NCBI GenBank assembly: GCA_963843575.1
Contig: CAWJKZ010000003.1
Span: forward strand, 1-15,688
Length of the DNA: 15,688 nucleotides
Source of the DNA: an uncultured Acidobacteriota bacterium
GTDB lineage: Bacteria > Acidobacteriota > UBA6911
Reading direction: 5' to 3'
Part shown: positions 293-7,338 of the stretch, piece by piece
Layout of the letters: each line of letters begins with the position of its first letter
How positions within the stretch are numbered: position 1 is the first letter of the stretch
Translations under genes and position numbers: made by a program
Notes under the pieces: generated by a model
Seen by the model: only the letters and a program-made list of their open reading frames with translations
Told to the model about the DNA's origin: nothing
Databases searched by the model: none

Positions 293-926
293 TCAGGGCG
301 TGGCCACGAACCGCTTGGGCCCCGAGACGCACGGCGAGTCTCGATCGACGAAGCGGAGCGGCCACTCGCGCGCTTCGCCGGCGTAGTCGATGCCTATGCG
401 CGGTGTTACGGCAAGCCGCGGGGCAGGCGTCGGCCCCCCCAGCACGCGGACGGCCCCGCCGCCCAGCAGGTCGAGGCCGCTGAGCCTCGCAGTGATGCCC
501 AGCCTCGCGCAGAGACGCCCCGGCCCGGAAAGCAGCTTCGGCGGGCAGCCGTCGGGCACTCCGGCGGCCCGGAGGAGGACGGCCTCCGCGACTCCTTGGC
601 AGCCGGTCACGACGTTGGCGCAGAAATGCATGCCGTACACCAGGAAGACGTACAGGTGGCCCGCCGTCCATGTACATCGGCTCGACCCGTGCAGTCCGCC
701 TCCCTCCCCACGAGTGTGCCGCCCGGTCCTTCGCGCCGAGGTAGGCCTCCGTTTCGACGATCCGCGCTCCGTACCAGTGCCCGCGGTAGCGGCGGGCGAA
801 CCAGGCCCCGACCAGCCGACGCGCGACCTCGACGGTGTCCTGGCGGAAGAAGTCCCGGCCGAAGTCGTCGAGCTCCGGCAACCGGGGATCCAGCAGCAGT
901 CTGGAGTCAGGGGCGATCTGAGCCAT
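293..926 (-). CDS. mpg: DNA-3-methyladenine glycosylase (MPG/AAG family), with one +1 frameshift near 660-662
   Basis: N-terminal frame from ATG 926: FFRQDTVEVARRLVG...RIVETEAYLGAKDRAAHS...RVEPMYMDG. C-terminal frame: GHLYVFLVYGMHFCANVVT...AVLLRA...SGPGRLC...TPRIGIDYA..WPLRF. The span is 634 nt (3n+1); removing one base from the CCC at 660-662 joins the two frames. Confidence 0.9.
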
Positions 927-1019: not shown

Positions 1020-3033
1020 ATGGACACCAATCGCGAAAGCGGCCGGGCGGGACGCGACCTCCTCGGCGGTGGCGAACTCTTGGATCGCGTGAAGACGAGG
1101 GCCGCCGGGCCGGCCGGCCGGCTGCCTTTTACCGAAGAGATGCTGCGCGAGCGGCCGAGTGGCGACCTTTTCGGCTGGTCGCAGGATGCGGGCATGGGCT
1201 GGGATCCGGGCGAACTCGGGCGCACGGAGTTCCTGATCCTGAGCACCCAGGGGGGCCTTCGGGCGGATTCGGGTGAAGCCGATCGCCCTGGGGTTTCACA
1301 TCGGCCACTGGGAGGTGGGGTTGCTGGTCGGGGCGGCTGCGCGCGAATTCAAGACCACTAGGATGCGATCCCGTTCGCCGGCTGCTGCACGGATCCGTGC
1401 GACGGCCGCACCCAGGGCACGCCGGGCATGATGGACAGCCTGCCGTACCGCAACGATGCGGCGACAGCTGCTGCGTCGCCTCGATCCGGTCGCTGCCGAC
1501 GCGCCGGGGCGTCCTCGGGGTGGCGACCTGCGACAAGGGGCTGCCCGCCATGATGATGGCGCTCGCCGGCAGCCGCACGCTCCCGTGCGTGCTCGTGCCA
1601 GGCGGCGTGACACTGCCTCCCGACAAGGGCGAAGATGCCGGGCAAAGTCCAGTCGATCGGCGCCCGTTTCGCGCACGGCGTGATTACGGTCGAGCGAAGC
1701 GGCCGAGCTGGCGTGCCGCGCATGCGCGACCCCGGGCGGCGGGTGCCAGTTCCTGGGAACGGCCGCGACTTCGCAGGTGGTGGGCGAGGCGCTGGGCCTC
1801 TCCCTGCGCGCATTCCGCCCTGGCTCCCTCCGGCCAGCCCGTCTGGCTGGATGCCGCGGCGAGATCCGCCCGCGCCCTCGCGTTCTGGACTCGCGCGGGC
1901 ATCGCGCTGGCCGACATCCTCACGCCGGCCGCGATCCACAACGCCATGGTCGTGCACGCCGCCTTCGGCGGTTCGACGAACCTGCTGCTGCACGTACCGG
2001 CGATCGCCCACGCGGCCGGACTTCCCCGGCCGTCGGTGGACGACTGGATCTCGGTCAACCGCAGCGTGCCGCGGCTGGTCGACGTCACTGCCCGAACGGC
2101 CCCGCGAATCACCCGACGGTCCGCGTGTTCCTGGCCGGCGGAGTGCCGGAGGTCATGCTGCACCTGCGGCGGCTGGGGCTGCTCCGTGAGGATTGCCTGA
2201 CCGCCGCAGGGCTGACGCTCGGCCGCGTCCTCGACTGGTGGGAGAATTCCGACCGTCGCCGCCGCTCGAGAGAACGCCTGCGCCAGGCGGACGGGATCGA
2301 TCCCGACGAGGTCATCTTCACGCCCGAAAACGCGGCGCGGCGGGGGTTGACCAGCACCGTGACCTTCCCCAGGGGCAACCTGGCCCCCGAGGGGTCCGTG
2401 GTGAAAAGCACGGCCATCGACCCGTCGGTCGTTGATGCGGACGGGGTGTTTCGGAAGGTCGGACCGGCACGGGTGTTCACCTCCGAAACCGGTGCCATCG
2501 CCGCCATCAAGAGCAACGGACCCGATCGTATCCGGGCAGGCGACGTGCTGGTCCTGATCTGTCGCGGCCCGGCGGGTGCCGGGATGGAGGAGATCTACCA
2601 GATCACGGCTGCGCTGAAACACCTTCCGTGGGGCAAGCACGTCACCGTACTGACCGACGGTCGCTTTTCCGGCGTCTCCACCGGCGCGTGCATCGGCCAC
2701 ATCGGACCGGAGGCCCTCGCCGGCGGCCCGATCGGCAAGGTGCTGGACGGGGACCGCATCCGGGTCGTCGTGGACCGCAACCAGCTGACAGGCTCGGTGG
2801 ATTTCGTGGGGGACCCCCACGGGGAGTTCGGGGTCGCCGAAGGGGAGCGCATACTCGGCGAAAGGGCGCCCCGACCGGACCTCCGCCCCGATCCGTTGCT
2901 GCCGGACGACACACGGCTCTGGGCCGCCCTCCAGGCGTGCAGCGGCGGCACGTGGGGCGGGTGCGTAACCGATCCGGCAGCGATAGTCGCGGCCCTGTCT
3001 CGGGGAGCCGCCGAGGCAAGCCCCGGGAAATGA
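1020..3033 (+). CDS. yjhG: YjhG/YagF-family D-xylonate dehydratase (IlvD/Edd family), broken by multiple frameshifts that are probably sequencing errors
   Basis: Colinear motifs across frames: [134 protein letters not shown]. Frame changes near 1275, 1355, 1467, 1483, 1640, 1695, 1808 and 2087-2092. Confidence 0.92.
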
Positions 3034-4536: not shown

Positions 4537-5259
4537 TTACCAGTTCTCGATCATGCTGGGGTGATACACGGGCGGATTGAGGAAGCGCACGTCCCGGCGT
4601 TTGAAGATGCCCACCAGCAGCATCCCTGCCACGAACCCGCCGATGTGCGCCCAGAACGCCACGCCGCCCCCGCTCCCCTGGCCGGCCATGCTGCCGCTGA
4701 AAAGCTGGAGCACGAACCACACGCCGAGGACCCACCCCGCCGGGATGTACATCATCCGCACGAAGAAGCCCAGGAACACCAGCGTGAGCACGCGGGCCCT
4801 GGGGTAGAGCAGGATGTAAGCCCCGAGCACGCCCGAAATGGCTCCACTGGCACCGATCGAAGGGATCGTCGAGCTCGGGTTGGACACCACGTGCGCCAGC
4901 GAGGCCAGTACGCCCGTCAGGAGGTAGAAGAGAAGGAACCGCACGCGCCCCATCGCCTCTTCGATGTTGTTGCCGAAGATCCAGAGGTACAACATGTTCC
5001 CGAGCAGATGCATGATGCCGCCGTGCAGGAACATGCTGGTGAAGACCGTCAGGAGCGGCGGGACCGCGAGCAGCGAGGCCGGGAGAGCGCGCTCGCCCAG
5101 GACGACGGCCGGGATAGCCCCGTACTGATAGACCATCGTCTGCCCGTCCTTGGCACCCAGGGATACCTGGTACGCGAAAACGACGACATTGATGGCAATC
5201 AGCGCAATCGTCAGGAATGGCGTGATCGTTGTCGGGTTGTCGTCCCGCAGGGGAAACAT
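4537..5259 (-). CDS. Rhomboid-family intramembrane serine protease
   Basis: MFPLRDDNP N-terminus, SMFLHGGIMHLLGNMLYLWIFGNNIE, catalytic GASG, AFWAHIGGF (catalytic His), several hydrophobic helices; SD GAGGA. Confidence 0.95.
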   Translation of the reverse strand: MFPLRDDNPTTITPFLTIALIAINVVVFAYQVSLGAKDGQTMVYQYGAIPAVVLGERALPASLLAVPPLLTVFTSMFLHGGIMHLLGNMLYLWIFGNNIEEAMGRVRFLLFYLLTGVLASLAHVVSNPSSTIPSIGASGAISGVLGAYILLYPRARVLTLVFLGFFVRMMYIPAGWVLGVWFVLQLFSGSMAGQGSGGGVAFWAHIGGFVAGMLLVGIFKRRDVRFLNPPVYHPSMIENW

Positions 5260-5599
5260 GCGTCCTCATCCTTGCCGGCGGCACCGGCTCTCCCGGGTTC
5301 CGGCGGCACACGCCGCGCCAGGCCTTCCGCTGGGAACATTGAAGCACATCCCCGACCAGCCCGCAATGGGCGCGGTAAGGAGCTTCCCGCCTGTGCCGGA
5401 TGTGGTTCTCAAAGTCGCTGGATGTCGACCTTCTGCTGGAGATGGTGGACAGGCTCGTGAGGAGGACCGCCGAGAGCAGGCGATACCGGTCGCGTTGACT
5501 CGCGGCCGGGCATCGGCCGAGGAGATCGGCACGGCACGGTTGGCATACCTTCCATCGAGAGCGGGTCGGAGCCGCGGCGGTGCCTGGGACGCCAAAGCG

Positions 5600-5628
5600 T
5601 TGTGTGCGGCCGATTTGAGAGTTACAAT
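5600..5628 (+). promoter_or_regulatory. Sigma70-type promoter TTGTGT-N17-TACAAT; predicted TSS about 5635
   Basis: -35 at 5600-5605, -10 at 5623-5628, spacer exactly 17 bp. The predicted TSS coincides with the first arm of a long-range helix. Confidence 0.65.
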
Positions 5629-5634
5629 ACGTCG

Positions 5635-5835
5635 ATCGCTCAACACCGAGAGATCCGGCGCACAGAATGGAACATGCCGGGAAGTCCGCACGACCACGCA
5701 GCGCCCCCGGAGGGACGCGTGGAGGTTCGAACCGGCCTGCGACAGGGGTTCGCGGAAGACGGCTGAGTTGGGAAAAGCGTGCGGCTGGGCTGGGGCCTAC
5801 CGTCGCCTTCACGCCCGTTTGTCTCCGAGAGCGAG
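5635..5835 (+). ncRNA. Candidate structured leader or ncRNA (~200 nt) upstream of the NYN gene; family not recognised
   Basis: Nested helices found by eye: TCGCTC 5636-41/GAGCGA 5829-34; GAGAT 5650-54/GTCTC 5821-25; CCGGCG 5655-60/TGCCGG 5675-80; CCGCACG 5686-92/CGTGCGG 5778-84; CCACGC 5694-99/GCGTGG 5717-22; CGAACC 5728-33/GGTTCG 5747-52 enclosing CCTG-CGA-CAGG. Confidence 0.5.
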
Positions 5836-5856
5836 CGCCATGCCACAGAGGTGAAA

Positions 5857-7338
5857 ATGACAGAGGAACGCTTGAAATTCGCGGTGTTCATTGACTTCGA
5901 CAACATCGAGATCGGGGTCCGGACGACGCTGTCGCGCCGGTTCGACATCGACACCGTGCTGGAGGCCATCAAGGAGCGGGGAGAGGTGGTCACGAAGGTT
6001 GCGTACGGAAACTGGAAGCGCGCGGACGAGTACAGCCAGGCGATGACAGAGCACGCGGTCCAGATGGTCCAGCGCAACGTCACACCGCGAGGGGACAAGA
6101 ACGGCGCCGACATCAACCTGGCGCTTGACGCGCTGGAAATGGCCTTCACCCGGGAACACATCAACGCATTCGTGATCGTGGGGGGCGACAGCGACTTCAT
6201 CGCACTCGTTGAGAAACTCAAGCAGTACGACAAGTCCGTCTTCATCGTGGGGGGACGCGCCTTCACCAGCACGATCCTGCAACGGAACTGCCACGAGTTT
6301 ATCGCCTACGAGAACCTGGTGGCCACGTCTCCGCCGGCCCGAAAACCCGCCGTCAAGGCACAGGCGACCAGCCGCGCGCAGATTGAAGATGCGCTGCCGC
6401 TCATCCGGCGCGCCCTCAAGATACTCGCCGACCGCGAGGTCTCGCCGCAGCTCGGTTTGCTCAAGAGCACCCTCCTGCAACTCGATTCCACTTTTTCGGA
6501 GAAGGACTACGGCACCGGCAGCTTCCGCGAATTCATCCAGAAGATGGCCAACGCAGGCTTCCTCAATCTGAAGCAGGTCGACCGCAGCCTGATGGTCGAG
6601 CTCAGGGACAGCGAACCGCAGGCGGCTGCCGTGGCTGCCCCGCGCGTCGAGGAGCCTCCTTCCGAAGCTGCGGAAGCGGCGCCGGAGGTCGCGCCGGAAC
6701 CCGAGCTGCAGCCACGTCCCCTCGAAGGGGGACGCGACCTGTTTGGGCTGTTCCAGAACGCCCGCGTGAGGCCGCGCTGGCCGATGTATCTGCGGAACAT
6801 GAAGCAGTACCTCAGGGCAGCCGACCCGACGTTCGACGAGCGCGCGCACGGTTTCGCTACTATCCACGACCTTGTCAGGCAGGGACAGCGGGAAGGCATC
6901 TTGCGGATCGAACGGAACCGGCAGGGGATATTGCGCATCTTCCCGGGCGACCGGTTCCCGGGCGAGGGTGCACTGCCCATTCCAGAGGTCCCCGAGATTC
7001 CCGAGCCCGAAATCAGTGGGATCGAAGTCGAATCCGTCCTCCAGGAGGCGCCTCCCCTGGCGGCCGAGCAGATCACGGAATCGGCGCCCGAGGTAGTTAA
7101 CGAACCGCTGCCCGAGGTTCCTGGCGAGAGCGCCGTTGCGGTGCCCGCCGAGGAAGCCGCGGCAGTCCCGGCGGAAGCTGCCGTCGCCGAGGTTGAGGCC
7201 GAAGAGGCCCAGCCGTTTTTCCCTCCGGTGGAAAGGGCGAGGCGGCGCCGGAGCCCGGGTCCTGCAGCGGCGCAGCGCAAACGGCAGCCGTCGGCGCGCA
7301 AGCCGCGGACAAAAAAGAAGGTCGAAGCCGAAAGCTGA
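5857..7338 (+). CDS. NYN (LabA/DUF88, PIN-like) ribonuclease-domain protein with two OST-HTH/LOTUS domains and a disordered acidic/basic C-terminal tail
   Basis: NYN acidic motifs FIDFDNI, KNGADINLALDA, GGDSDF. LOTUS-like motifs LKSTLLQLDSTFSEKDYGTGSFREFI and MKQYLRAADPTFDERAHGFATIHDLV. E/P/A-rich linker and tail ending in RARRRR...RKPRTKKK. SD GAGGTG before ATG 5857; 493 aa. Confidence 0.9.
   Translation: MTEERLKFAVFIDFDNIEIGVRTTLSRRFDIDTVLEAIKERGEVVTKVAYGNWKRADEYSQAMTEHAVQMVQRNVTPRGDKNGADINLALDALEMAFTREHINAFVIVGGDSDFIALVEKLKQYDKSVFIVGGRAFTSTILQRNCHEFIAYENLVATSPPARKPAVKAQATSRAQIEDALPLIRRALKILADREVSPQLGLLKSTLLQLDSTFSEKDYGTGSFREFIQKMANAGFLNLKQVDRSLMVELRDSEPQAAAVAAPRVEEPPSEAAEAAPEVAPEPELQPRPLEGGRDLFGLFQNARVRPRWPMYLRNMKQYLRAADPTFDERAHGFATIHDLVRQGQREGILRIERNRQGILRIFPGDRFPGEGALPIPEVPEIPEPEISGIEVESVLQEAPPLAAEQITESAPEVVNEPLPEVPGESAVAVPAEEAAAVPAEAAVAEVEAEEAQPFFPPVERARRRRSPGPAAAQRKRQPSARKPRTKKKVEAES

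Follow-up and report, generated by a model that had tools for sequence, protein, structure and literature searches.

The window analyzed here is a 15.7-kb contig of an Acidobacteriota MAG whose genome, G000, is 88% complete. The leader under study lies between two divergent genes:

4537-5259, minus strand: rhomboid protease gene, divergent and upstream (PF01694, E 3.1e-35; codon-position GC)
5857-7338, plus strand: gene for an NYN + OST-HTH/LOTUS protein of 493 aa (Pfam domains; N-terminus alignment)

A Pfam search assigned the NYN domain of the downstream protein to PF01936 (E 1.2e-31) and its OST-HTH/LOTUS domain to PF12872 (E 2.4e-05), confirming the NYN-LOTUS gene that the first-pass annotation had placed downstream of a structured leader RNA; the nearest solved structure was 2qip (E 1.1e-07). 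The start of this gene at 5857 was set by a GAGGTG Shine-Dalgarno sequence and by alignment of the N-terminus with those of 29 orthologues. Because the orthologue N-termini align at 5857, an N-terminal extension from GTG 5779 was ruled out and that start was dropped. Since the upstream rhomboid gene is on the minus strand, the leader sits in a divergent intergenic region of 597 nt. This region is single-copy in the genome G000, and a repeat or mobile element was rejected on that ground. To our knowledge, neither the substrate nor the regulation of bacterial NYN-LOTUS (MARF1-like) proteins is known. Elsewhere in the window, the Pfam matches of a methylpurine-DNA glycosylase gene (331-854, minus strand) and of a dihydroxy-acid/6-phosphogluconate dehydratase gene (1397-3033, plus strand) are each divided between two reading frames; these split genes are frameshifts, from assembly indels or pseudogenes.

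The elements that define the 5' end of the leader are as follows, with G001 denoting the sole other genome of the same genus, also an Acidobacteriota MAG:

5592-5599, plus strand: conserved box CCAAAGCG, just 5' of the -35 hexamer, at which identity with G001 starts
5600-5628, plus strand: sigma-70-like promoter (TTGTGT, 17 nt, TACAAT), kept in G001 and rare as a motif
5634-5636, plus strand: predicted transcription start, 6-8 nt past the -10 hexamer, from promoter geometry only

The 17-bp-spaced promoter described in the first-pass annotation was found in place, with TTGTGT at 5600-5605 matching three of six consensus bases and TACAAT at 5623-5628 matching five of six. Both hexamers are identical in G001, and 15 of the 17 spacer bases are the same by our own count on the alignment. 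The pattern TTG-N20-TANAAT, which was picked post hoc, occurred once on both strands of the 15.7-kb window versus 0.01 expected, and was matched in one of 200 shuffles. A strict sigma-70 consensus scan placed the promoter below threshold because its -35 hexamer matches at only three of six positions. On the strength of its rarity and conservation, the promoter is judged to be more than a chance motif. Its position ~220 nt before the start codon implies a long leader, and it probably gives the NYN-LOTUS gene one of ~220 bases, with transcription predicted from promoter geometry alone to start at 5634-5636.

On the opposite side of the intergenic region, a candidate rhomboid promoter (TTGCGG, 17 nt, TTCAAT) was observed at 5338-5366 on the minus strand, its hexamers falling in the sole two short blocks (5338-5350 and 5361-5370) that G001 keeps within the gap 5269-5591. 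Between the divergent promoters, ~220 nt of the window (5371-5591), single-copy in the genome, lack an equivalent in G001, in which the conserved blocks on either side are separated by ~20 nt; the stretch contains a sub-threshold Rfam P10 match.

Comparison with G001 revealed a sharply partitioned leader. The two genomes share the divergent arrangement, with amino-acid identities of 81% for the NYN protein and 92% for the rhomboid protein, and their coding DNA is 76-86% identical. The promoter block was the sole strongly conserved non-coding stretch between them, and four other unaligned stretches gave matches of 10-13 nt only. Within the leader, which measures 222 nt in the window and 216 nt in G001, the following segments were distinguished:

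5592-5697, plus strand: promoter and 5' block (z 27.9 versus shuffles against G001)
5681-5697, plus strand: conserved tail of the 5' block (GAAGUCCGCACGACC...), which carries the 5' strand of a proposed 7-bp helix
5698-5818, plus strand: variable middle of the leader (alignment to G001 z 0.05; 234 of 500 shuffles scored as high)
5819-5856, plus strand: conserved 3' block, the last 38 bases (z 10.8 versus shuffles)

The 5' block comprises the promoter and the first ~63 transcribed bases. It has a sharp 5' boundary at the box CCAAAGCG, its conservation stops near 5697, and it gave BLAST segments at 5592-5660 (88.6% identity over 70 nt) and 5670-5690 (95% identity). The middle of the leader is no closer to G001 in sequence than chance would give, and it keeps its length (121 nt in the window, 119 nt in G001). 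The 3' block holds the Shine-Dalgarno sequence GAGGUG at 5848-5853, together with UCUC (5822-5825) and GAGCG (5829-5833), which are complementary to the GAGA and CGCUC of the first hairpin described below. Contigs from four DNA runs contained near-identical pieces over the leader, with 2 other letters each, and confirmed the leader to be gap-free; because they are near-identical to the window, they add no covariation signal.

Two adjacent hairpins were predicted in the 5' block, and RNAalifold retained a small set of helices on the pair of leaders:

5634-5655, plus strand: hairpin H1, formed by GAUCGCUC, a 6-nt loop and GAGAGAUC, with one G.A mismatch (stability; invariant arms)
5655-5680, plus strand: hairpin H2 (= P3), formed by CCGGCG, a 14-nt loop and UGCCGG (invariant arms)
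plus strand: P1, CGCUC with GAGCG (RNAalifold; invariant)
plus strand: P2, GAGA with UCUC (RNAalifold; invariant)
plus strand: P4, UCCGC with GCGGA (RNAalifold; invariant)

Each hairpin was more stable than its shuffles in both genomes (z -1.28 to -3.77). H1 had a predicted energy of -7.4 kcal/mol (z -3.77; 2 of 200 shuffles equally good) in the window and -7.7 (z -1.69) in G001, and H2 reached -8.5 (z -1.28) and -10.3 (z -2.69), respectively, with a pair probability of 0.84 in the window versus 0.24 in G001. Folded together, the first 71 nt of the leader were no better than shuffles (z -0.11). The arms of both hairpins are invariant between the genomes, whereas their loops vary: that of H1 carries two substitutions and a 1-nt insertion, and that of H2 one substitution and a 7-nt deletion in G001. 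Across 5634-5680, the five differences are thus confined to the 20 nt of loops, and the 28 nt of stems are free of them, a pattern that by our own post hoc arithmetic would arise by chance about 1% of the time if events were uniform. The retention of stems while loop lengths change tentatively favors a constraint acting on RNA over DNA operators of fixed geometry. How far H1 lies from the 5' end of the RNA depends on the start predicted from the promoter.

The helices retained by RNAalifold (P1, P2, P3, which is H2, and P4) are all invariant, so that these two sequences show no covariation, and the consensus fold was only slightly better than in column-shuffled alignments (z -1.54; equalled by 16 of 300). 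The window pair probabilities of P1 and P2 were low (0.04 and 0.12), the value for P1 being an underestimate because only the second of two tandem GAGCG copies was counted. As P1 and P2 use the arms of H1, H1 and the long-range P1/P2 pairing are mutually alternative. The longest helices of the two leaders (10 bp in the window, 5717-5726 with 5805-5814; 11 bp in G001) connect corresponding positions but are unrelated in sequence, a coincidence reached in 44 of 2000 shuffles with thresholds chosen after the fact. The helix at these positions has a probability of 0.055 in the window and 0.99 in G001, and the window leader would have to be forced into it at a cost of ~13 kcal/mol; it is not counted as a shared helix.

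The gene is far more widely distributed than the leader. Of 61 related genomes, 49 encode an NYN-LOTUS protein (G000 itself and the unpublished G046 are part of this count), and so do all 36 of the other family members searched. Relatives were drawn from metagenomes (the best 80 of 454, 51-77% identity) and from a scan of species-representative genomes (the best 80 of 350), neither of which contained a member of the genus beyond G001; the two scans added 160 loci without a further close relative. When the 600 nt upstream of the gene in 190 loci were searched with nhmmer and blastn, only the window itself and G001 were recovered, the latter being present twice (L002 and L111). A covariance model, R1, built from the two leaders likewise matched only G000 and G001 among 51 family genomes. 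These two matches exist by construction because R1 was built from those sequences; the others scored at most 18.6 bits, and those checked of the weaker matches sit on a contig other than that of the NYN gene. Among 182 other loci, R1 gave no match above 14 bits and none upstream of the gene. The comparison of orthologue upstream regions that the first-pass annotation had proposed therefore uncovered a leader homologue in G001 alone, and orthologues in other genera have the gene without this leader. With no leader homologue before the gene in the other loci, the long leader is a trait of one genus and not of the gene family.

Other loci showed upstream arrangements of their own. Many of them (L003-L030, L041-L109) have a -10-like box (TGCTATTCT, GATGTAATCT) ~10-25 nt from the start codon, so that their mRNAs would be short-leadered or nearly leaderless, and in 13 of 30 family orthologues the aligned start codon is TTG. 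Seven "g10-type" loci (L004, L006, L009, L027, L029, L030 and L031), of which six belong to a different genus within the family, carry a CTG[GA]TATA[AC]T box 198-211 nt before the NYN start codon, which implies a ~190-nt leader of constant length and poorly conserved sequence. A shared structured leader in that other genus was considered and rejected, given that the seven leaders fold at z -1.90 to +0.17; unrelated to the window leader, they gave a negligible consensus fold (-3.2 kcal/mol, z -0.54). In the literature on NYN, LOTUS and OST-HTH proteins in bacteria, we found no study of a bacterial NYN-LOTUS leader.

The first-pass annotation had gone further and drawn the whole leader as a closed ~200-nt multi-helix domain, which could act as a riboswitch-like sensor, an autoregulatory substrate or a partner RNA of the NYN-LOTUS protein. 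The strands it paired are all in the sequence: TCGCTC (5636-5641) with GAGCGA (5829-5834) as closing helix, CCGCACG (5686-5692) with CGTGCGG (5778-5784) as a 7-bp helix, and GACGG (5758-5762) with CCGTC (5800-5804) as an alternative or pseudoknot helix, as are the A-rich linkers. The RNAfold minimum free energy (MFE) structure of 5635-5856 includes the closing helix, the 7-bp helix and the inner hairpins and is essentially the hand-drawn model, and the 7-bp helix has a mean pair probability of 0.80 in the window ensemble. However, when the leader was set against dinucleotide shuffles, as the annotation had suggested, its energy fell on the weak side of the shuffled background (-82.1 versus -90.1 +/- 4.7 kcal/mol; z = +1.72), with 196 of 200 shuffles folding at least as well. 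The annotation's own caution that high GC makes chance helices common was borne out. The minus strand of the leader gave z = +0.25, and the G001 leader z = -1.21, with 26 of 200 shuffles equally good. The closing helix keeps five of its six pairs in G001. The 7-bp helix keeps four of seven pairs, and its 3' strand lies in the unconserved middle of the leader, as do the junction hairpins and the strands of the pseudoknot helix, of which two of five pairs are kept; the three helices together retain 11 of 18. A shifted register would give the 7-bp helix five pairs and one compensatory change in G001, a result that rests on a free choice of alignment. The conserved leader length, the marginal consensus fold and the post hoc coincidence in position of the longest helices would all suit a closed domain, but the two ensembles differ in precisely that longest helix, and a homologue before other orthologues was not found. 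No Rfam family (release 15) matched anywhere in the window at gathering score, in agreement with the annotation, which had recognized none; in E-value mode, 5350-6000 returned noise only, namely an upstream, minus-strand P10 match of 18.1 bits (gathering score 37) and a snoR79 match of 15.9 bits (gathering score 80). Binding by the encoded protein would be in line with the G-rich/G4 RNA preference of LOTUS domains described in the accessible part of PMC7498356, yet this preference is not mirrored here: G-run counts are at the shuffle mean and a canonical G-quadruplex motif is absent in both leaders, and a G-quadruplex ligand for LOTUS was accordingly rejected. The multi-helix fold is what a sequence of 65% GC yields by chance, and a large folded RNA is unsupported because only the two small 5' hairpins and the ribosome-binding end are conserved, the orthologue leaders being unconserved outside one genus. 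We consider a closed, functional domain improbable; what stands of the earlier proposal is the promoter, the long leader and the lack of a known family.

The conservation might instead reflect a constraint on DNA, with 5592-5697 consisting of the promoter and one or more operators, and with the leader either lacking an RNA function or preceding a main start near 5700. Repressor operators frequently sit around +1 to +22, and an imperfect palindrome, GATCGCTC-N6-GAGAGATC, occupies about these positions, matching its own reverse complement with 2 mismatches (0.04 expected, evaluated post hoc). Conservation is uniform from the hexamers and their spacer through the first 63 nt before it ends abruptly near 5697, and the -35 of the sigma-70-like promoter is weak. 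A second, ECF-type promoter (GGAAC-N17-CGAC, 5669-5694) is possible, with AGAAC-N17-AGTC read from the alignment at the corresponding place in G001, but a motif of this kind is of low information content, and the two genomes do not share its -10. The arm spacing, moreover, changes by 1 nt in H1 and 7 nt in H2 between the genomes, which is awkward for dimeric DNA binders, and a regulator gene beside the locus was not found. We regard a purely DNA-level constraint as unlikely. Coupling of translation to the downstream gene through a short upstream ORF (ATG 5674 to TGA 5764-5766, 30 codons) is very improbable. The aligned ATG opens a 30-codon frame in both genomes and, by our own reading, an in-frame Phe-Ala-Glu occurs near the end of each peptide, but the peptides are otherwise unrelated, the ATG lies inside the H2 stem without a convincing Shine-Dalgarno sequence, codon-position GC is weakly gene-like, and we estimate an open frame of this length to have about even odds at 65% GC. 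Extremely improbable, finally, is a reading in which the U-rich run 5816-5825 ends either a separate small RNA or an attenuator of the terminator type. A conserved T-rich run, CGTTTGTCTC in the window and CGCTTTTCTC in G001, comes after GC-rich pairing; against this, a scan of 5200-6000 found no intrinsic terminator, the local hairpin was no better than shuffles (z +0.31 for 5780-5828 and +1.37 in G001), and terminator-like sites across the window numbered 7 versus 7.7 expected. Titration of CsrA was also considered and rejected, the leader having 7 GGA motifs versus ~5 expected from composition by our own arithmetic. A CsrA homologue is encoded at G000:C14:649395-649550 on the minus strand (80 bits).

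We tentatively favor a lineage-specific long 5' leader in which the 5'-terminal tandem stem-loops are functional, in mRNA stability or protein binding, and the middle is an unconstrained spacer, an explanation that we hold to be quite possible. It builds on the promoter motif, the partitioned conservation, the stems kept while loops vary and the absence of the leader elsewhere, all of which were observed. The sigma-70-like promoter at 5600-5628 would drive transcription of a ~222-nt 5' untranslated leader (5635-5856), and selection would act on both of its ends only. Its first ~63 nt would fold into the adjacent stem-loops H1 and H2, beginning at or 1-2 bases from the predicted 5' end, and its last ~38 nt would provide the ribosome-binding site together with a short segment complementary to H1. 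If H1 and H2 act at the RNA level, they would be a 5'-terminal determinant of mRNA fate, protecting the message from 5'-end-dependent decay and/or serving as a protein-binding site, and the arms of H1 may pair instead with the 3' block through P1/P2. The central ~120 nt would be a freely evolving spacer with no conserved multi-helix domain.

Decay of mRNA can be controlled by 5'-terminal stem-loops, the E. coli ompA leader being the type case of an mRNA stabilizer of this kind. The leader described here is long and, like such stabilizers, has a hairpin with conserved stems predicted at its 5' end or 1-2 nt from it, a comparison that rests here on the start predicted from promoter geometry. It differs in having two adjacent conserved hairpins, the arms of which are also able to pair near the ribosome-binding site. 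We know of no study of the mRNA decay machinery of Acidobacteriota.

Autoregulation through hairpins in the mRNA leader is known for several RNases, as in the E. coli rne 5' UTR and the rnc and pnp leaders. The present leader is similar in that it is long, contains conserved stem-loops and lies before a predicted ribonuclease gene; unlike those leaders, to which it has no sequence or Rfam relationship, it belongs to an RNase gene of the NYN/PIN-like family and is confined to one genus, whereas the gene occurs in all 36 other family genomes. In eukaryotes, Regnase-1 (ZC3H12A) acts on a stem-loop in its own mRNA. It too is an NYN/PIN-like endonuclease, and the possible stem-loop target in its own transcript offers an analogy only, as Regnase-1 is a eukaryotic enzyme with a 3' UTR target and a different domain context. 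By this analogy, self-regulation by the NYN-LOTUS enzyme is possible. A stronger version, in which the nuclease would recognize and cleave its own mRNA at H1 and H2 and so limit it, and NYN RNase genes of unrelated phyla would have acquired such leaders independently as a bacterial parallel to Regnase-1, is distinctly improbable. The MARF1-like bacterial proteins, which share the NYN + OST-HTH/LOTUS architecture found downstream of this leader, are the subject of PMC7498356, the accessible part of which deals with the protein and does not mention a leader RNA.

In summary, the surviving finding is, as read from the two genomes, a block of promoter and leader that is specific to one genus and includes two conserved hairpins. 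The hand-drawn multi-helix fold, attractive but expected by chance at 65% GC, serves as a useful negative. A genus-restricted long 5' UTR with two conserved hairpins would add modestly to the large number of lineage-specific leaders in bacteria. If the enzyme recognizes this leader, however, it would provide a first handle on the substrate and regulation of NYN-LOTUS proteins.
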